Shown: positions 8,407 through 63,035 of the stretch, piece after piece
How the letters are laid out: the number at the start of each line of letters is the position of its first letter
Numbering within the stretch: position 1 is the first letter of the stretch
Virus record (IMG/VR): IMGVR_UViG_3300027418_000370
Reading direction: 5' to 3' (one strand)
Origin: a virus
DNA: 64,000 nt
The notes under the pieces: generated by a model
Databases searched by the model: none
Seen by the model: only the letters and a program-made list of their open reading frames with translations
Told to the model about the DNA's origin: nothing
Position numbers and translations under genes: made by a program

Positions 8407-10092
8407 ATGGCTAATCAAACTATAGCAGGATTTCACGACAGGGACGGTAATATAGGCGTCGGTACAACAGCACCAGAAAACCGTCTACACCTAGGACCAA
8501 ACTCAGGTAATGTTAAGCTAGCACTTGAATGGAGTGATAGTCATTCAGCAACCTCAGGAGAAGCTTACTCAACAATCTACACCTCAGGCCAAGGAGGTAC
8601 TTATCCATTTAGCGGCAGAGGTAACCTAGTCTTACAACCAAGAAATACTGACGGCAATGGTTCAGGTGATTTAGTTGTAATGACAGGAGCAACAGCTACA
8701 CCAAAGTTAGTTGTTCAAGCAGGAGGTAACGTAGGTATTGGAACTGTTTCACCAACAGCCCAGCTTCATGTAACAGCTTCTAAATCTACTGCCTGGTTAG
8801 CAGTACTGGATAATAGCTCAGACAGCGGCCACGGACTATACATTAAAGCAGGCGGCACCTCAGGTACCCGTTACATAACCCAATGGAGAGATGCAGCAGG
8901 AACAGAAAGATTCCACATGCAAGATACCGGAGAGATGTATGCCCCTAGTATCGGAACAGGTACTGATAATTCTGTTGTTGTCTTAAATTCATCCGGTTAC
9001 TTTAAGACCGACGAGATTGACTCTAGAGTTTGGGGATCTACTTTAGTAGACGGATCAGGAACAGCTAACTATATTACTAAATGGTCTGATGCTGATACGC
9101 TTACTAATTCCGTTATGTATGATGACGGTACAAATATCGGTATTGGCATTACTACACCATCAGCAAAAGTAGACGTATATCAATCCGGTTCTACAGCCTT
9201 TAACGTAGCCGGTTCACAAGGACAGCTCTTTAGCGTTACTGATTCTCTATCAGGATCACTAATGTCTGTAAATGATATTTCGGGTATTCCAATCCTAGAG
9301 GTGTTCTCGGATGATAGAGTTGTGATGGGGCAGTACGGCACAAATGCTCTAGTAGTCAATGGAACGAGTGTAGGTGTAGGCACATCAGCACCTGTATTAC
9401 CATTACATGTTAGAGGTCAAGCTCAAATAGGAAGCAACGGTAACCAGCTTGCACACGCTGCACTACAGGTATCAGCCGGAGAAGGAGGTGCTACTCTTTA
9501 TAGAGACATTGATATTAAAGGGGCTTGGTCTTCAAACGAAGGTCACGCTATTACAGCAACCCATTCTTCTACCGCCAGTAACATTGTAGGGCAGATGGTG
9601 TTTGAATATAACAGCCCAGGATCTAGAATTAAGTGGGGTAGATTATATCATAGCGGTGACCAGTCTACCTATCCAATGCAGCTGGTGAGTAACGGTTCTA
9701 ATGCTAATTTAGGTATCGGTACCGGTTCACCTGCCTACCAATTAGACGTTACAGGTACCATCCGTGCTACTGGTGACGTTATTGCATACTCTGACCGTAG
9801 AGTCAAGCAAGATATTGTAACGTTAGAGAACTCAGTAGACTTAGTTAAGAAGTTAAGAGGTGTATCTTACAAGAAGATCGGTGAAGACGATCAGAAGATC
9901 GGGGTAATTGCACAAGAAATCTTAGAAGTACTACCGCAAGTAGTATCAAAAGATGAGAATGGTATGTATTCGGTAGCGTACGGCAACATGGCCGGCCTAT
10001 TTATAGAAGCGATCAAGGAGCAACAACAGCATATTGAGACCTTAGAAGAGCGCATACAAAAGCTTGAGCAGTTACTAACCCAAAAGCCTTAA
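8407..10092 (+). CDS. Tail fibre protein with C-terminal peptidase S74 intramolecular chaperone
   Basis: GNVGIG repeats; ends SDRRVKQDI...LRGVSY...GVIAQE...VAYG...EAIKEQQ coiled coil (SDxRxK autocleavage motif). Confidence 0.88.
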   Translation: MANQTIAGFHDRDGNIGVGTTAPENRLHLGPNSGNVKLALEWSDSHSATSGEAYSTIYTSGQGGTYPFSGRGNLVLQPRNTDGNGSGDLVVMTGATATPKLVVQAGGNVGIGTVSPTAQLHVTASKSTAWLAVLDNSSDSGHGLYIKAGGTSGTRYITQWRDAAGTERFHMQDTGEMYAPSIGTGTDNSVVVLNSSGYFKTDEIDSRVWGSTLVDGSGTANYITKWSDADTLTNSVMYDDGTNIGIGITTPSAKVDVYQSGSTAFNVAGSQGQLFSVTDSLSGSLMSVNDISGIPILEVFSDDRVVMGQYGTNALVVNGTSVGVGTSAPVLPLHVRGQAQIGSNGNQLAHAALQVSAGEGGATLYRDIDIKGAWSSNEGHAITATHSSTASNIVGQMVFEYNSPGSRIKWGRLYHSGDQSTYPMQLVSNGSNANLGIGTGSPAYQLDVTGTIRATGDVIAYSDRRVKQDIVTLENSVDLVKKLRGVSYKKIGEDDQKIGVIAQEILEVLPQVVSKDENGMYSVAYGNMAGLFIEAIKEQQQHIETLEERIQKLEQLLTQKP

Positions 10093-31869: not shown

Positions 31870-34164
31870 ATGGCAGAAGATAATTTAAACTTAGAAGGTA
31901 ATATTGAGAGAGCCGAGGAACTGAAAATGTCCTTTGGCTCTATTAATAATGCTGTTAATGAACTTAACAGAGCATTAAGACGTACCGGTGAAGATACTGC
32001 TGAAGTAGGTAGAGTGTTTGCTCAACTAAAAACCTCTGCAGATAACGTTGCTAAAGTACAACGAAGTATTCAAGAGAGTTCTGCCGGTACTGCTAATGCT
32101 ATTAAGGAACAAAAAGCTAACCAGGATAAAGCTACTCAGTTAGCAAAACAAGCTGGTGAGTTTTATATTCAAGCTCAGACAGCAACCGGTAAAACAAAAG
32201 ATAATCTTCTACAGCAATCAGAAAACCTTTATAGAGCTTCAGGAGAAGCTAGAGTACTTTCTGAATTATATAAAGAAATTGCAATACAGGCAGCTAAACT
32301 AGACTCCTCCACAAAGTTCTTTAGAGCAGCAAGCACATTTATATCCAGTATACCTGGATTTAAAGCATTCGCTGAACCTTTCCAGCAAGCAGAAAAAGCA
32401 GCCAGAGAAGCTGTAGCTAAGACAGGTAGTACTATATCAGGCTTTGGAGCAGGTTTAAAAGCTCTAGGTAAAGGTTTATTTGATATGCTATCTCTTCCTG
32501 CTTTAATTGCAGGTACATTACAGCTTTCAAAGAATACTAAGGACTTAAGTACTAACTTAGGTATTAGCATGAGTGCTGCAAGAGATATTGAAAGAAGTTT
32601 CGATAGGTTTGCACTAAGTACAGAAGATAGCAGAGTAACTACTCAGAAACTACTACAGGCACAGAATACATTATCCGGTCAATTAGGTTTAGCAGTACAG
32701 TTTAGTGGGGAGACTCTACAGAACTTTATCATGCTTACCGAGTATATGGGAGTAAGCACAGAAGCTGCTGCTAAACTCACCCTACTCACAGAAGGACTTG
32801 GAGATAACTCTAAGAAATTCACAGATAATATAGCTGAGTCTGTAACTCTAGCTGGACAGGCATTAGGAGTTAATATACCTCTAAAAGAAGCTTACGAGAC
32901 TATCGGTAAGATGTCTTCAACTACGCTAGTTAATCTACAGAGAAACCCAGAAGCATTAGCCAGAGCAGTAGCAGAAGCAAAAGCATTAGGAGCTACCTTT
33001 GAACAGTTAAGCAGTGTTTCAAGTAGCTTACTTAATTTTGAGACCTCTATCGAGAATGAGCTTCAAGCTGAACTTCTAGTAGGACGTCAGCTTAATCTAG
33101 AAAAAGCTAGAGCAGCAGCACTGACTGGTGATCAAGCAAGCTTAGCAAAAGAACTGAGAACTCAGATCGGCTCGATTAACGAGTTCGAAAAGATGAACGT
33201 AATTCAAAGAGAATCTCTAGCACAGGCCTTTGGATTAAACGTTGAGCAGTTGAGTGAGATGCTTCTAAAGCAAGAAGCATTAAATGCTAATGCTAAATCT
33301 GCCAGAGACCTAACAACAGAGCAGATCAGTCAAGCTAGAGCGTTAGCTAAAGAGAAGAACATAGGATTTGGAGATGCACTATCTCAGATTCAAGAAGAAA
33401 GAGATGCTGCTAAAGCTTTTGAAGATGCATCTAAAAAACTACTAGGTACATTCCAGAGATTATTTATCGAGCTATCTCCTGTACTAGAAAAGATTGCTAA
33501 TATTGCTGGTGATCTAGCTGCTAATCCATTCTTCAAAGGACTTACTCTTGTAGGAGCTGGAACAATGGCTTTATCCTCTATTGCTAAATCTCTAAACCTT
33601 ATGCCTCAAAAGGTGTTTGTTGTTAACCAAGCAGGTGGAACAGGAGCAAGCGGAGGAGGTATGCTAGGTACATACGGAGCCGGAAGCAACGCTTCAGCAC
33701 TATCGGCAGCTAGAGCAAAAGGACTTTCAAATAAGCAAATTGCTGCAGGCTTTGGAGGTAAAGGAGCTATGCAAGGACTAAAGAGCAGTAGAATGGTTAC
33801 CAGAGGAGCAGGAATTGCTGCTATAGGAGGACTAGCTGGCGCTGCAATGATGCAATCTGAAAACGAAGGAATGCAGATCGGTGGAGCAGCTCTATCTGGA
33901 GCAAGTACCGGAGCGATGGTCGGTGGTATGTTCGGCCCAGCCGGTATGGCAGTAGGAGCAGGATTAGGAGCAGCTATTGGAGGTCTTACAGCCTACCTTA
34001 ATAAGAAGGATAAGGATGATGAGAAAGCAAAAGACACTGGTGCTGAAAAATACGATAAGATGATTAAGCTGCTCGAAGAGCAAGCTAAGAAAGATACTAA
34101 GATATTCATGGATGCCAATCAGGTCGGTATCTCTATGGCTTTAGGTAACCCAAGATTGAATTAA
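31870..34164 (+). CDS. Tape measure protein
   Basis: Ala/Leu-rich helical protein with Gly-rich hydrophobic C-terminus, in the canonical position. Confidence 0.85.
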   Translation: MAEDNLNLEGNIERAEELKMSFGSINNAVNELNRALRRTGEDTAEVGRVFAQLKTSADNVAKVQRSIQESSAGTANAIKEQKANQDKATQLAKQAGEFYIQAQTATGKTKDNLLQQSENLYRASGEARVLSELYKEIAIQAAKLDSSTKFFRAASTFISSIPGFKAFAEPFQQAEKAAREAVAKTGSTISGFGAGLKALGKGLFDMLSLPALIAGTLQLSKNTKDLSTNLGISMSAARDIERSFDRFALSTEDSRVTTQKLLQAQNTLSGQLGLAVQFSGETLQNFIMLTEYMGVSTEAAAKLTLLTEGLGDNSKKFTDNIAESVTLAGQALGVNIPLKEAYETIGKMSSTTLVNLQRNPEALARAVAEAKALGATFEQLSSVSSSLLNFETSIENELQAELLVGRQLNLEKARAAALTGDQASLAKELRTQIGSINEFEKMNVIQRESLAQAFGLNVEQLSEMLLKQEALNANAKSARDLTTEQISQARALAKEKNIGFGDALSQIQEERDAAKAFEDASKKLLGTFQRLFIELSPVLEKIANIAGDLAANPFFKGLTLVGAGTMALSSIAKSLNLMPQKVFVVNQAGGTGASGGGMLGTYGAGSNASALSAARAKGLSNKQIAAGFGGKGAMQGLKSSRMVTRGAGIAAIGGLAGAAMMQSENEGMQIGGAALSGASTGAMVGGMFGPAGMAVGAGLGAAIGGLTAYLNKKDKDDEKAKDTGAEKYDKMIKLLEEQAKKDTKIFMDANQVGISMALGNPRLN

Positions 34165-53987: not shown

Positions 53988-54812
53988 ATGGCAAAACACG
54001 TTGTTGTTAGTCTTTCAGGAGGGATGGACTCCTCTACGTTACTTCTAAAAGCTCTTAAAGAGTTTGATACAGTAACAGCAATGTCTTTTGATTACGGTCA
54101 AAAGCACAGAGTAGAGCTTGAAAGAGCTCAAGAGTTGGTAAAGTACTTGAGTGATAACGGTCACTCTGTTAATTACCGAGTAATCAAACTAGACGGCTTG
54201 GTTGACCTGCTCAACTCGGCTCTAGTAACAGGTGGTGCTGAAGTACCTGAAGGTCATTACGCAGAAGAGAATATGAAAGCTACTGTTGTACCGAACCGAA
54301 ACAAAATCTTCAGTTCAATTTCTCAAGCTGTAGCACTTTCTATTGCAAATGAAACTCAGGAAGAAACTTCCATTGCGTTGGGCATTCATGCTGGTGATCA
54401 TGCGATCTATCCGGACTGCCGACAGGAATTTCGGGATGCAGATGACGCTGCTTTCCGCACTGGTAACTGGGACGCTGAGCGCGTATCTTATTGGACTCCT
54501 TATCTTGAAGGCGATAAGTTTACTATTCTAGAAGACGGACTGGTATTATGTGAGAAGCTAGGAATAGACTTTGATGAAGTTTATAAGCGTACTAACACCT
54601 CTTATAAGCCAATCAAGTACTATCACCGTCCAGAGACTAATGCCTGGACTTGGTACTCAGACTACAAATCAGCTTCTTCAGTAGAGCGTATTGAAGCTTT
54701 TATTAAGCTAGGACGACCTGATCCTGTAGCGTACGCTGATGAGACCGGCCCAGTGAGCTGGGAGGTAGCACGTGAGCATGTTGAAAAAGTTTTAGCAGCA
54801 CACGCAAATTAA
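53988..54812 (+). CDS. queC: 7-cyano-7-deazaguanine (preQ0) synthase
   Basis: SGGMDS, FDYGQKH..E, VPNRN, YPDCR. Confidence 0.95.
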   Translation: MAKHVVVSLSGGMDSSTLLLKALKEFDTVTAMSFDYGQKHRVELERAQELVKYLSDNGHSVNYRVIKLDGLVDLLNSALVTGGAEVPEGHYAEENMKATVVPNRNKIFSSISQAVALSIANETQEETSIALGIHAGDHAIYPDCRQEFRDADDAAFRTGNWDAERVSYWTPYLEGDKFTILEDGLVLCEKLGIDFDEVYKRTNTSYKPIKYYHRPETNAWTWYSDYKSASSVERIEAFIKLGRPDPVAYADETGPVSWEVAREHVEKVLAAHAN

Positions 54813-54813
54813 T

Positions 54814-54845
54814 TAGGGGGGAGCTTGTCTCCCTCCCTATTTATT
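54814..54845 (+). terminator. Hairpin after queC (likely terminator) overlapping the next promoter
   Basis: TAGGGGGGAG-CTTGT-CTCCCTCCCTA followed by TTTATT. Confidence 0.6.
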
Positions 54846-54853
54846 CTTATATT
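54825..54853 (+). promoter_or_regulatory. TTG-N20-TATATT promoter for the lipoprotein-trx-queD-queE unit
   Basis: Motif match directly before aptamer copy 1. Confidence 0.65.
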
Positions 54854-54854
54854 A

Positions 54855-54886
54855 AGAGTGTCGGAGCACCACTATAAAAACACCGG
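54855..54886 (+). ncRNA. preQ1 class I-like riboswitch aptamer, copy 1
   Basis: P1 AGUG/CACU, loop UCGGAGCAC, tail AUAAAAAC-ACCGG; loop CGG.G pairs with tail C.CCG, ending at the ATG. Confidence 0.65.
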
Positions 54887-55480
54887 ATGAAAAAGTTACT
54901 ACTATTATTACCTCTGCTCTGGGCTTGTGAAACGATTGAGCCCTATGTTCCTGAACCTTGTCAGGAATGTACTACTATTCATAGAGTAGATACTATTCAA
55001 CATCCTGGAACTTATTATCAAGACGGATACTGGCATTTACAATATTCAGGTATAAATTACTTCCAGGTTATCGGTCAGTTAGATTCCCTACATCCTCAAT
55101 ATGTTATAAATGGAGTACCGCTACTTCAAGTAGTATATGATAGCGATACCTGGTATGTATTTGATACCATTGCTATGCAAATACCTCTGTACTCTCCATT
55201 TACTTCCCAATATACTTCCCCAAGCTTTAATTACCCTATCTCAACAGGAGATACTACAATCTATATTACAAATCCTAACTACATTATAAATGCAGTAGGT
55301 TATACGTTTGGAAGTACAAACTTTGTGAATGCTATGCACACATACCAGCCCCGGTGTGAAGTACTGGTGTTTGAAGAGATGGTGGGAGATACGATTAATG
55401 TCTTCACAAGAACGCGTTATAACTACGATCTAGGTACTCAGATAATAGTAAACGATACAATTAAAGTTATAGTAGAATGA
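54887..55480 (+). CDS. Lipoprotein
   Basis: MKKLLLLLPLLWAC lipobox. Confidence 0.7.
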   Translation: MKKLLLLLPLLWACETIEPYVPEPCQECTTIHRVDTIQHPGTYYQDGYWHLQYSGINYFQVIGQLDSLHPQYVINGVPLLQVVYDSDTWYVFDTIAMQIPLYSPFTSQYTSPSFNYPISTGDTTIYITNPNYIINAVGYTFGSTNFVNAMHTYQPRCEVLVFEEMVGDTINVFTRTRYNYDLGTQIIVNDTIKVIVE

Positions 55481-55683
55481 AAAAACAGTTATTAGTAGAG
55501 CCTGTTCTTCCGAAAAGTAAGAACATTGAAAAGATGCCTGATCAGAAATGGCATCAAATTATCTCATTTATTAAATCCGGAGTCCGTATTCTTGGTTACG
55601 CACTGCTTATTGTTGATATCCCAACAGCAATGGTGGTACTGGTCTTGAGTGAGGCAGTCGGCATAATCGAAGAATTAGTATGA
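55477..55683 (+). CDS. Small two-TM membrane protein
   Basis: H..ISFIKSGVRILGY...SEAVGIIEELV; start may be the internal MPDQKWH. Confidence 0.6.
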   Translation: MKKQLLVEPVLPKSKNIEKMPDQKWHQIISFIKSGVRILGYALLIVDIPTAMVVLVLSEAVGIIEELV

Positions 55684-55940
55684 AGTATTTGTATTTCTCA
55701 GCACCTTGGTGCGGTCCTTGTAGAATGTTAGGTCCAACAATGGAAAAAGTAGCAGCAGAAGGAATTGCTGTAGAAAAAATTAACATCGATACGGAAGAGC
55801 TCCTAACGATGGAATACACAGTCCGCAGTGTACCTACTGTAGTACTGATTGATGATTCTGGAAAAGAATTTGCTCGTACAGTTGGCGCTAAGCCATTAAG
55901 TCACTATATTGAACAATATAATAATTTTACAAATGTATAA
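55680..55940 (+). CDS. trxA: Thioredoxin
   Basis: FSAPWCGPC, VRSVPT. Confidence 0.93.
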   Translation: MKYLYFSAPWCGPCRMLGPTMEKVAAEGIAVEKINIDTEELLTMEYTVRSVPTVVLIDDSGKEFARTVGAKPLSHYIEQYNNFTNV

Positions 55941-56391
55941 GTCAAGAAAGAAGTTTGATGGCTTTAGTACTTGCTTCCGTCAATGGAAAGCGAATACTAC
56001 ACACTGTCAGTACCTACACGGCTATGATGTAGAGTTTGAAGTAACGTTTGAAGGAGATCTCGATCACCGTAACTGGGTATGGGACTTCGGAGGTATGAAG
56101 CGAGCTAAGAACCTGATCGACGGTATGCAACCTAAAGAATGGATGGAGCATATGTTCGATCATACTGTAGTTGTAGCAGAAGACGATCCTGAACTAGATA
56201 ACTTCAGAGATATGGCCGACAGAGGCGTTATTCAGTTACGAGTAGTAGAGGCAGTAGGTGCAGAGAAATTTGCTGAATTTCTTTACCACAAGCTAAATGA
56301 CTTCGTACAGACAGAGACAGACGGCCGAGTTAAGGTCATTAAAGTTAAATTTATGGAGAACCACAAAAACTCAGCAATCTATGGCGCTTAA
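55933..56391 (+). CDS. queD: 6-carboxytetrahydropterin synthase
   Basis: HCQYLHGY, WVWDFG, FDH, AE, terminal E...NSA; start MYKS at 55933. Confidence 0.9.
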   Translation: MYKSRKKFDGFSTCFRQWKANTTHCQYLHGYDVEFEVTFEGDLDHRNWVWDFGGMKRAKNLIDGMQPKEWMEHMFDHTVVVAEDDPELDNFRDMADRGVIQLRVVEAVGAEKFAEFLYHKLNDFVQTETDGRVKVIKVKFMENHKNSAIYGA

Positions 56392-57157
56392 GAGAATTGA
56401 AGATTATAATAAGGTACTGCCGATTGTAGAGCTTTACCGATGTGTACAATCAGAGGGTAGTCGTTTTGGACGTCCTACTATCGCTGTACGTACTACAGGA
56501 TGTACTCACCGCTGCTACTTCGGTGAAGGAGGTTGGTGTGATAGCTGGTATACCTCTATCCATCCAGAGAAAGGTGGTTATTCATTTAACGATATTATTA
56601 AGATTTACGATGAGAATCCTCACGTAAAGGAGATGATGCTAACAGGAGGTAGCCCAACAATGCACCCAGCCTTAGTAAATGAGATTACTCACTTTGCTAA
56701 AGAAAGAGGTATTATTGTTACTATTGAGACTGAAGGTTCTCACTTCCTTGAGACGGACTATCCTCTTGATCTTATCTCTCTATCTCCTAAGTTCTCTAAT
56801 AGCGTACCCGTAGTAGGAGCTGTTACACCTCAAGGCGCTATTGCAGATGAGAAGATGATTAAGCAACATAACAAGTTCCGTATCAACAAAGATGCTATCC
56901 GTCAGACTTTGGACTATCATACTGATTACCACTTTAAGCCGGTATGGGACGGTAGCGCAGCGAATCTAGTAGAGATTGAAGCATTTAGGGTTGAGATGAA
57001 TATTCCTAAAGACAAGACTTTTGTTATGCCTGCAGGTGATACTCGTGAGACTTTAATTGAAATGTACCCAATCGTATTTGAGATGTGTGCCGAGCACGGT
57101 TACAATATGACCGGACGTGATCACATCATTGCCTACGATACTAAGAGAGAAGTATAA
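56381..57157 (+). CDS. queE: 7-carboxy-7-deazaguanine synthase (radical SAM)
   Basis: VQSEG...RTTGCTHRC..WCDS, TGGSP, IETEG, SLSPK, R.H; start MALKRI at 56381. Confidence 0.92.
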   Translation: MALKRIEDYNKVLPIVELYRCVQSEGSRFGRPTIAVRTTGCTHRCYFGEGGWCDSWYTSIHPEKGGYSFNDIIKIYDENPHVKEMMLTGGSPTMHPALVNEITHFAKERGIIVTIETEGSHFLETDYPLDLISLSPKFSNSVPVVGAVTPQGAIADEKMIKQHNKFRINKDAIRQTLDYHTDYHFKPVWDGSAANLVEIEAFRVEMNIPKDKTFVMPAGDTRETLIEMYPIVFEMCAEHGYNMTGRDHIIAYDTKREV

Positions 57158-60245: not shown

Positions 60246-60281
60246 AGAGGTGTCGAAGCACCACCTAAAAAAACAAATTAT
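60246..60281 (+). ncRNA. preQ1 class I-like riboswitch aptamer, copy 2, in the folE leader
   Basis: P1 AGGUG/CACCU, loop UCGAAGCAC, tail AAAAAAAC; fills the space between the promoter and the folE ATG. Confidence 0.65.
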
Positions 60282-60992
60282 ATGGCAGATAAAAAACGTT
60301 ATGATGTAGAACTCGCTCAAGCCGGGTTCGCTAATGGTGTCTCTTCTCAACTGGCTGAGAAGTTTAAAGTTCATTCTATGAACTCTATGCACTTAACAGA
60401 TCAAGAGAAGCATACTATTATTGAGAATGCTGCAAAGGCATTCGGAGAATTCCTAGATGCTCTAGGATGTGACTGGCGTGATGACCCTAACTCATCTGAT
60501 ACTCCTCGTCGAGTAGCTAAGGCTTATGTAAACGACTTATGGGCAGGACGATTCAATCCTATGCCTGAGATCACAGCCTTCCCTGCTGATGGTTATGATG
60601 GTATTGTATTTGAGGGTAATATTCCTTTGACCTCGATGTGTTCGCATCACCACCAGACTATTCAAGGTCGAGTTCATATTGCTTACATTCCAGGTCCTGG
60701 AGGTAAGGTAATCGGTCTATCTAAGCTCAATCGTATTGTAGAGCATTTCGGACGTAGAGGTGCTATTCAAGAGCAGCTTACTGTTGCTATTCATAATGCA
60801 GTTCATACTGTTTGTGAAGGTAATGTAGGTGTAGCAGTTATGGTAGAAGCTACTCACAATTGTGTATCATGCCGCGGTACTAAACACGCTGGTGCGTCAA
60901 TGAAGACTTCTAAGCTATCAGGTAGCTTTATGTACGAAGACTCAGCACGAGCAGAATTTTATGAATTTGTTAAAGGTTACGCATGCAAATGA
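60282..60992 (+). CDS. folE: GTP cyclohydrolase I
   Basis: DTPRRVAK, SMCSHHH, GLSKLNR, IQEQLT, HNCVSCRG. Confidence 0.96.
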   Translation: MADKKRYDVELAQAGFANGVSSQLAEKFKVHSMNSMHLTDQEKHTIIENAAKAFGEFLDALGCDWRDDPNSSDTPRRVAKAYVNDLWAGRFNPMPEITAFPADGYDGIVFEGNIPLTSMCSHHHQTIQGRVHIAYIPGPGGKVIGLSKLNRIVEHFGRRGAIQEQLTVAIHNAVHTVCEGNVGVAVMVEATHNCVSCRGTKHAGASMKTSKLSGSFMYEDSARAEFYEFVKGYACK

Positions 60993-61495: not shown

Positions 61496-61689
61496 GTCCA
61501 AAAGAACTGGTAGAACAAAATAGTATCTTCTTAGAAGACCTACAACGCTGGGTTGTACCTTTAGAAGTAGTAGAGGAAGCCTTGCAGATCAAGAGCGCTA
61601 AAGAGCTTGAAGATAATTTAGGTAAACTTCAAGATAGTATGTTAGAATTAAACAAGTTATTTAACGATTTAGGAAACGCCAATGGTTAA
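61492..61689 (+). CDS. Small hypothetical protein
   Basis: Coupled ORF. Confidence 0.5.
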   Translation: MSPKELVEQNSIFLEDLQRWVVPLEVVEEALQIKSAKELEDNLGKLQDSMLELNKLFNDLGNANG

Positions 61690-62509
61690 GATTGCACACG
61701 AGAGTCCTATTGCTAGCTTTGACACTATTCAGCAGTATACGGATTATGATTACGCTTTAGTACATCTCTTTGAAGAGAACGAAACTTATTTAGATAAGTT
61801 TGTAGAAGCACGAGATAAAGGACGAGAGATTATTCTCGATAACTCTATCTTTGAATTAGGAAAAGCTTTTGATTCAGAACGCTTTGCTTTCTGGATTGAT
61901 TATTTAAAGCCTACCTGGTACATCGTACCTGATGCATTAGAGAATGTAAAGCGTACTTGTGCTAATATGGCTGAGTGGAACTTTAAGTATGCAGATCATC
62001 TAGCAGCACCTAGTAAAAAGATTGGAGTACTACAGGGAAAGACTTACTCTGAGCTTATCAATTGCTATGACTACATGATTAATATAGCAAAGGTAGATAT
62101 GGTGGCTATCTCTTTCGATTACAGTTATTACGAACAGCTCGTACCACACCCTAACAAGTATGTTAGCTGGATGCTAGGCAGAGTTGTGCTCTTAGGTAAG
62201 ATGTTACGTGATGGAGTAATCAACCCAGATATCCCTCACCACCTACTAGGCTGTGGACTTCCTCAAGAGTTTGCTTTCTATAAAGACTACGATTGGATCT
62301 ACTCACTAGATACTTCTAACCCAGTAGTACACGGTTTGTTGGGAATCGAGTATAAAGATCAAGGGTTGTGGGATAAGGCATCAATCAAGTTATTTGAGAT
62401 GATTAATATGACTCCTACCTCTGAGCAGGTTACTTCAGCAGTTTATAATGTTCAACGCTTTAGATGGTTCGCACATGGTAGCAACTCGTCCGTGGATAGC
62501 ATTCTTTAG
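61682..62509 (+). CDS. dpdA: TGT-fold 7-deazaguanine transglycosylase (DpdA3-like)
   Basis: IILDNSIFE, IVPD, GVLQG, HHLLG, SLDTS motifs; context among que genes. Confidence 0.8.
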   Translation: MVKIAHESPIASFDTIQQYTDYDYALVHLFEENETYLDKFVEARDKGREIILDNSIFELGKAFDSERFAFWIDYLKPTWYIVPDALENVKRTCANMAEWNFKYADHLAAPSKKIGVLQGKTYSELINCYDYMINIAKVDMVAISFDYSYYEQLVPHPNKYVSWMLGRVVLLGKMLRDGVINPDIPHHLLGCGLPQEFAFYKDYDWIYSLDTSNPVVHGLLGIEYKDQGLWDKASIKLFEMINMTPTSEQVTSAVYNVQRFRWFAHGSNSSVDSIL

Positions 62510-63035
62510 TCAGACTGGATCTGAGATTGTTCAGGTTAGTAAGCAGTTAGGTCGCTGGCCTGACCTTATTATTACTAATATCAGGCCTTCTCATTTACGT
62601 ACTATACATCCTGAGATTCCTACAGACCTATTAAAGTATACTCAGAATAGACCTGAGGAGCATGAGCTTGTATGGCTGATGAGTGCAATAAGTGATAACC
62701 CTGTTGTAACTTTACACGGATGGTTAAGAGTAATGCCTGCTTCTATCTGTAATCGCTATGAAATCTATAACGGACATCCAGGATTGATTACTAAATATCC
62801 AGACCTAAAAGGAAAAGATCCTCAATATAGAGCCTGGGAAGGTAACTATAAGACTGCTGGCTGTGTTATTCACAAAGTAACTGCCGGAGTAGATGAAGGA
62901 GAAGTTCTAGTGGAGCGAGAAAGTATACATAAGATGTTGCCTAAGAACGATATTTTTCGTATCTTACATGACACATCAGTAGAGATGTGGATAGAATTTT
63001 TACATAATAAACTATGGTTAGACGAATTGCATTAG
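62475..63035 (+). CDS. dpdN: PurN-like formyltransferase (DpdN-like, preQ1 N-formylation)
   Basis: FFSQTGSE, LHGWLRVM, NGHPGL, GCVIHKV..GVDEG; overlaps dpdA. Confidence 0.8.
   Translation: MVATRPWIAFFSQTGSEIVQVSKQLGRWPDLIITNIRPSHLRTIHPEIPTDLLKYTQNRPEEHELVWLMSAISDNPVVTLHGWLRVMPASICNRYEIYNGHPGLITKYPDLKGKDPQYRAWEGNYKTAGCVIHKVTAGVDEGEVLVERESIHKMLPKNDIFRILHDTSVEMWIEFLHNKLWLDELH

Follow-up and report, generated by a model that had tools for sequence, protein, structure and literature searches.

A predicted compact preQ1-I-like riboswitch aptamer in the leader of a deazaguanine operon of a Flavobacterium-type phage

The closest described relatives of the element reported here are the type II aptamers of class I preQ1 riboswitches, known from Thermoanaerobacter tengcongensis and Bacillus subtilis and represented in Rfam by RF00522. 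They have an H-type layout with a P1 helix, a loop and an A-rich L3 that ends in C. Their determinants are an AC before the 3' strand of P1, in which the C is the specificity base, a U6 in L1, a G5–C16 floor pair, an L3 adenine that reads N3 and N2, and a C7–G11–C30 ceiling; O6 of the floor pair reads the aminomethyl group of preQ1 (PMC11625349). Type I aptamers need a UC before the 3' strand of P1 and a UU atop its 5' strand (PMC11625349). Type III, represented by the yhhQ leader of E. coli (PDB 8FZA), resembles the present element in being a very small H-type pseudoknot; it needs a pyrimidine-rich loop and an AAGG tail in P2, and it controls translation by burying the ribosome-binding region (PMC10622847).

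The glutamine riboswitches of marine phages (Melnitz, pelagiphages and cyanophages) are also phage-encoded, and differ from our element in fold, ligand and associated genes. Streptococcus phage Dp-1 is associated with a preQ1 riboswitch on its que operon; we dropped it as a precedent after a search of its first 5 kb with Rfam at the gathering threshold returned no preQ1 riboswitch. Riboswitches have been described as rare in phages (PMC9004378). The literature searched yielded no account of a preQ1 riboswitch acting on a deazaguanine or DNA-modification pathway of a phage; the word 'riboswitch' is absent from the phage deazaguanine paper, and the word 'phage' from a 2024 review of preQ1 riboswitches (PMC11625349).

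We analyzed a stretch of 64,000 nucleotides (the window) from the virus record IMGVR_UViG_3300027418_000370. Based on conservation and covariation, we consider it likely that positions 54857–54881 form a compact, type II-like class I preQ1 riboswitch aptamer, in a Flavobacterium-type phage that makes a DNA base of the formyl-preQ1 type.

An aptamer-like leader before the lipoprotein gene

The element, hereafter copy 1, occupies 54857–54881 on the plus strand and consists of a 4-bp hairpin (AGUG/CACU), a 9-nt loop, a 7-nt A-rich tail and a final C. The AUG of a lipoprotein gene, at 54887, begins 5 nt after it. The first-pass annotation, made from the letters alone, had given the stem, loop, tail and AUG exactly as we find them. 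The 5' strand of P1, AGUG, lies at 54857–54860, and its G54860 is the conserved floor guanine equivalent to G5. The loop spans 54861–54869 and maps onto type II features (PMC11625349): U54861 is equivalent to U6, C54862 to C7 and G54866 to the ceiling guanine G11, while A54868–C54869 is the AC that carries the specificity cytosine. The 3' strand of P1, CACU, follows at 54870–54873. The L3 tail AUAAAAA, together with C54881, covers 54874–54881; the A-run and the C are at least 90% conserved, and C54881 is the partner of G54866.

Pairing and covariation of P1 were evaluated in an alignment of 68 distinct sequences (A2), which had been pre-filtered for a fully paired P1. In this pre-filtered set, P1 is paired in 68 of 68 sequences (100%), with covariation at three of the four pairs. 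The outer pair is AU in 26, CG in 19, GC in 12 and UA in 11; the second pair is GC in 49 and CG in 19; the third is UA in 51 and AU in 17. The closing pair, G54860–C54870, is G–C throughout (68/68). The covariation score of P1 is 0.445, compared with 0.085 in shuffled alignments, and any offset of the partner strand lowers it to 0.16 or less. Before filtering, P1 is paired at 4/4 positions in all but one of about 50 phage matches with the A-type loop. When the loop and tail were sought with a base other than C at the first position of the 3' strand, all 13 viral matches were unrelated chance occurrences; the closing pair is thus fixed. Judged by this covariation, P1 is a real RNA helix.

The resemblance to type II extends through the predicted ligand pocket. 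Copy 1 shares with type II the U after the 5' strand of P1, the C-G-N-A-G with the ceiling G, the AC with its specificity C before the 3' strand, the closing G–C pair and the A-rich L3 with its C. The spacing from the U to the ceiling G is the same, and the Rfam consensus aligns in the same register. The pocket columns (U54861, C54862, G54866, A54868–C54869, G54860–C54870, A54880 and C54881) are invariant or at least 90% conserved in A2, with the invariance of the loop columns partly built in because the patterns used to gather the sequences fix most of the loop. The element also lies in leaders of queuosine/7-deazaguanine synthesis genes, an association with genes of the folE and queCDE type that type II shares.

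Several features set the phage element apart from type II. Its P1 has four pairs instead of five, its L3 has 7 nt, and two, not three to five, nucleotides separate the ceiling G from the specificity C. In type II, P2 involves Shine–Dalgarno nucleotides; the phage element contains no Shine–Dalgarno-like purine tract, its P2 is conserved only as one G–C pair, and the AUG follows 5–12 nt from the knot. It is phage-encoded, lies on a DNA-modification pathway and scores far below the Rfam gathering threshold. At that threshold Rfam gave no match in the whole window, and around copy 1 a search at E up to 10 returned only noise. With the PreQ1 model RF00522 itself (gathering threshold 39 bits), copy 1 gave no match, a second copy before folE (copy 2, below) gave 9.8 bits, and the copy of the cultured phage vB_FspM_immuto_2-6A gave none. 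The current Rfam model therefore misses this phage group, along with a proteobacterial group that has the same pocket. We predict that the element is a variant that functions in the manner of type II within class I; Rfam's own criterion does not place it in RF00522.

The other preQ1-I types were considered and rejected. Type I is incompatible with the AC before the 3' strand and the UC atop the 5' strand (PMC11625349). For type III, which has UU after the 5' strand and the AAGG of a Shine–Dalgarno sequence in P2, the loop of our element contains G, A and G, P1 is followed by UC, and there is neither an AAGG nor a Shine–Dalgarno sequence (PMC10622847).

The first-pass annotation had proposed four P2 pairs that would extend the knot to the start codon. 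All four are possible in this sequence, and one of them, G54866–C54881, is conserved in 64 of 68 sequences, the four exceptions being length shifts in the alignment. The extension up to the AUG is not a family feature. Among 30 relatives, G54864–C54883 is matched by three G–C pairs and one U–A pair and G54863–C54884 by nine pairs, and for C54862–G54885 the base at position 85 varies. The tail ACCGG (54882–54886) thus offers lineage-specific extra pairing to G54863, G54864 and C54862 that has no conservation across the family. Position 54864 is U in most relatives; in the lipoprotein lineage, which comprises three distinct sequences, G54864 and the CC at 54883–54884 may strengthen P2. Two other arrangements, a shifted register of G63–C83 (49/68) with C62–G84 (12/68) and a pair N64–N84 like that of T. 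tengcongensis (44/68), are no better than loose composition allows.

Copies in phages and in marine Proteobacteria

Copy 2 lies at 60248–60274 on the plus strand, 7 nt 5' of folE (60282–60992) and about 5.4 kb downstream of copy 1. Its loop differs from that of copy 1 by one base, and its P1 has 5 bp. The annotation had read copy 1 as a second preQ1-I-like aptamer; conservation and model scores support this, and they support its kinship with the element in the folE leader.

Searching IMG/VR by pattern for the core of loop and stem gave many chance matches, and about 45 matches in which the full motif stands immediately 5' of a start codon. From 30 of these about 45 matches we built a covariance model (R1, from alignment A1). 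Over the whole genome of 124,656 bases, R1 recovers two copies, at 47.7 and 39.2 bits, both within the 7-deazaguanine cluster; the next match scores 14.6 bits (E about 1). This agrees with the annotation, which had seen only two copies, both in the deazaguanine cluster. Five related, near-complete phage genomes (116–191 kb) carry one or two copies each, all within a few kb of queF. The motif is therefore not scattered before unrelated genes in this genome or in its five relatives, and copy 1 is more than a chance match.

The R1 search also found divergent second copies in which P1 is UGUG/CACA, GGAG/CUCC or UGAG/CUCA. In the cultured phage vB_FspM_immuto_2-6A, which infects Flavobacterium sp. 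LMO8, a single copy at 32357–32397 lies immediately 5' of FolE; the DNA of this phage carries fdPreQ1 (formyl-preQ1) (PMC10516641). A 5.9-kb contig labelled as part of a Verrucomicrobiales MAG (L179, NYWG01000135.1) has two aptamers of the phage type, one before a small membrane protein gene and one before folE, and resembles a stretch of phage DNA assigned to a bacterial MAG by binning. A 23-bit match in Cellulophaga phage phiST is an unrelated hairpin with an A-run and does not belong to the family. A model search of 151 sampled Flavobacteriaceae genomes, one Zobellia and one Chitinophaga genome, which scored a fraction of the candidates, did not find the element.

In a scan of one genome per prokaryotic species for the same loop and tail, the identical 9-nt loop and tail, with P1 as CCUG/CAGG, appeared in the marine Proteobacteria Thalassospira, Vibrio, Marinomonas and Thaumasiovibrio (loci L147–L209, for example L147:1026–1076 and L173:3327–3365). 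The Thalassospira copies precede queC, and those of Vibrio, Marinomonas and Thaumasiovibrio precede a QueD-like gene, identified by its N-terminal motif only. The distance from aptamer to start codon is 3–18 nt for queC in Thalassospira and others, compared with about 60–80 nt for queD in Vibrio and Marinomonas. In at least some leaders of the Vibrio/Marinomonas type, the aptamer is separated from the QueD-like gene by hairpins or terminator-like stems. These proteobacterial hosts use Shine–Dalgarno sites, unlike the flavobacterial hosts of the phage element. In three of these proteobacterial genomes, the Rfam PreQ1 model gave nothing above the gathering threshold, with a best score of 22 bits.

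Transcription start and downstream genes

Upstream of copy 1 lies queC (53988–54812; Pfam QueC). A terminator scan places a strong terminator-like hairpin with a T-rich tail at 54816–54836 on the plus strand, where it would end the queC transcript; its folding energy is −16.7 kcal/mol (z −3.1), and it is conserved in two relatives (L255 and L268). Directly after it, at 54837–54844 and 12 nt 5' of P1, is the box CTATTTAT, a candidate phage promoter element. All 15 occurrences of this box in the genome are on the coding strand (15 on plus, 0 on minus). For 12 of them an ORF start is no more than 60 nt away, usually 11–27 nt downstream, and the box often comes just after a terminator-like hairpin; other sites in the window are at 9997, 10096, 24843, 27461, 30236, 31845, 40165 and 40967. 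In relatives the box is kept 12–14 nt before P1, including a contig (L290) that has no TATATT. We regard CTATTTAT as a candidate phage promoter class.

A second possible promoter is the TATATT at 54848–54853, found in a sigma-70-type scan as TTGTCT, a 17-nt spacer and TATATT, and ending 3 nt before P1. If TATATT served as a −10/−7 element, transcription would start inside P1 and truncate the stem. The annotation had raised this concern and had named the region of TATTTATT as an alternative promoter; the recurrence, strand bias and conservation of CTATTTAT make that alternative the better candidate. A start a few nucleotides downstream of CTATTTAT would place the whole aptamer in the transcript.

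Copy 1 heads a set of closely spaced plus-strand genes. The first (54887–55480) encodes a 197-aa lipoprotein with a signal peptide and lipobox, and the second (55477–55683) a small membrane protein of 68 aa from a large, uncharacterised phage family, homologous to the product of the second-commonest gene behind the aptamer. The Pfam and PHROG libraries contain no family for either protein. They are followed by a thioredoxin gene (55680–55940; Pfam PF00085, 4e-15), queD (55909–56391; PTPS fold, Pfam PF01242) and queE (56297–57157; radical SAM, Pfam PF04055). Judging from the N-termini of homologues, queD probably starts at an internal ATG near 55933, and queE (homologue L076) probably starts near 56381.

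The remaining genes of the cluster are a MazG-like gene, a 275-aa gene, a PurN-like formyltransferase gene, a kinase gene and that of QueF. The 275-aa gene (61682–62509) matches only PHROGs of unknown function and is placed where immuto has DpdA; the PurN-like (DpdN-like) formyltransferase gene (62448–63035; PHROG 9240) overlaps it. By analogy, the formyltransferase and the synteny with immuto suggest that the DNA base of this phage is formyl-preQ1, as in immuto_2-6A. QueF, which makes preQ1, is present in the window and in all five related genomes tested (6/6); folE encodes the entry enzyme of the pathway.

The annotation had asked which gene follows the element in related genomes. Across 55 distinct phage leaders, this is folE in 25, the small membrane protein gene in 23, queD in three, queE in one and the lipoprotein gene in three, that is, always a deazaguanine pathway gene, the small membrane protein gene or the lipoprotein gene. 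In a further locus (L226:8336–8358), the outer P1 pair of the aptamer copy is mismatched and the gene that follows encodes a FolE2-like (type IB) GTP cyclohydrolase, identified by motif only; here the putative switch would follow the first step of the pathway even when the enzyme type changes.

The lipoprotein gene itself is a late arrival on comparative grounds. In relatives L255 and L258–L260 the gene is absent, and the promoter box and aptamer stand directly 5' of the small membrane protein gene; L255 also shares the terminator hairpin of the window. The lipoprotein gene intervenes in four contigs, including the window. Only 14 homologue clusters of the lipoprotein exist, compared with at least 685 for the small membrane protein. 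The annotation had allowed for either a place in the system or a later insertion, and the gene order of relatives with the same terminator, box and aptamer points to the latter: the lipoprotein gene is, on this comparison, a lineage-specific insertion that inherited the putative riboswitch.

The small membrane protein has an invariant C-terminal module, MP.QKWH..SFIKS..R..GY ... SE..GI.EELV. Its gene is found within the deazaguanine clusters of phages, where it often comes first after the aptamer. When loci were fetched through this protein alone, only 9 of 71 had an aptamer within 3 kb; the gene usually lies inside operons without an aptamer of its own.

Proposed mechanism and rival readings

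The mRNAs of Flavobacterium johnsoniae have no Shine–Dalgarno sequences; their initiation depends on secondary structure and on adenines at −3, −6 and −14 to −11, and expression drops by 60–90% when those at −14 to −11 are replaced (PMC6847099). Counted from the AUG, the A-run of copy 1 (54876–54880) occupies −11 to −7, and the base at −3 is C, versus the favoured A. In all 55 phage leaders, 5–12 nt separate C81 from the AUG; position −11 falls within the A-run in 43 of them and position −12 in 36. With the aptamer 5 nt from the AUG, only a translational mechanism fits, which is the level of control that the first-pass annotation had predicted. The element probably turns off translation of an mRNA without a Shine–Dalgarno sequence by drawing its A-rich initiation region into the fold, with preQ1 as the presumed ligand and OFF as the presumed direction.

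In the mechanism that we propose, the mRNA of the operon (lipoprotein, small membrane protein, thioredoxin, queD and queE) would start a few nucleotides 5' of P1, probably at CTATTTAT. Accumulating preQ1 or, less well, preQ0 would pair with C54869 and stack between the G54860–C54870 floor and the G54866–C54881 ceiling, and the A-run at 54876–54880 would then dock into the minor groove of P1. The folded knot would end 5 nt before the AUG and hold positions −30 to −6, including the initiation adenines, so that loading of the 30S subunit would fall. Copy 2 would act in the same way on folE, and the two copies would together let the product feed back on steps one to three of the pathway. More broadly, we lean towards the view that these leaders are a phage subclass of preQ1-I riboswitches without a Shine–Dalgarno sequence, in which the ligand folds away the A-rich stretch at −14 to −7 that the Shine–Dalgarno-blind ribosomes of Bacteroidia need, as feedback by the base used for DNA hypermodification. 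Counting against the riboswitch reading are the absence of a flavobacterial host precedent in the partial search of 151 genomes and a P1 of only four pairs.

If this is correct, phages in which a deazaguanine derivative takes the place of guanine control the supply of its precursor through the smallest known kind of metabolite sensor. The element would also illustrate how translational control by a riboswitch is possible in a phylum with ribosomes that disregard Shine–Dalgarno sequences, and would be the first riboswitch expression platform that hides the A-rich initiation stretch of an mRNA without one. With an aptamer core of 25–28 nt, it would be an attractive minimal scaffold.

A reading that keeps the fold and changes the ligand would make the physiological effector another 7-deazaguanine, such as preQ0, CDG or the formylated preQ1 base, instead of preQ1. 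We think this unlikely, while noting what speaks for it. Type II aptamers accept preQ0 as well, the difference being only 17-fold for that of T. tengcongensis (PMC11625349); the predicted end product here is formyl-preQ1, not queuosine, given the DpdN-like formyltransferase (62448–63035) and the immuto synteny; and the loop from G66 to C69 has one nucleotide fewer than its T. tengcongensis counterpart. Against this, the floor guanine G60, the reader of the preQ1 aminomethyl group, is invariant, QueF is present in all 6 genomes examined, and in Proteobacteria, where no DNA-modification pathway is in view, an identical core stands before ordinary queC and queD genes.

It is very unlikely, in our judgement, that copy 1 is an inactive remnant, with transcription from TATATT starting inside P1 and an operon mRNA without a complete aptamer. 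The sigma-70-like arrangement 3 nt before P1 and the terminator after queC, which limits read-through, would both fit such a remnant. However, the aptamer is intact in 4 of 4 contigs of the lipoprotein lineage, P1 covaries (AGUG/CACU versus AGGUG/CACCU) in sister contigs that share the upstream region, and CTATTTAT, a recurrent, strand-specific box found before genes, is kept 12–14 nt upstream even where TATATT is lacking (L290). The least probable alternative, to which we attach hardly any weight, is a leader that binds a protein, for example a phage translational repressor, or only modulates mRNA stability, and senses no small molecule. The very small size of the element and its one or two copies per genome are compatible with that idea, whereas the conservation of every position that contacts preQ1 in solved aptamers argues for a ligand pocket. 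The element is, moreover, strictly tied to deazaguanine-pathway genes or to genes embedded in their clusters, and the same core recurs in distant bacteria with different expression platforms, a hallmark of riboswitch aptamers. We therefore retain the preQ1 aptamer as the preferred reading.

When copy 1 is folded alone with nearest-neighbour energies, a register-shifted hairpin, GUGU/GCAC, is preferred (−2.4 kcal/mol, z +0.8). A marginal P1 is expected of a knot that is stabilised by its ligand. The way in which the outer pair covaries does not fit the shifted register. The shifted hairpin (54858–54869, with a 4-nt loop) competes with P1 in leaders that have the GUG...CACCAC arrangement, and could be the ligand-free conformer.
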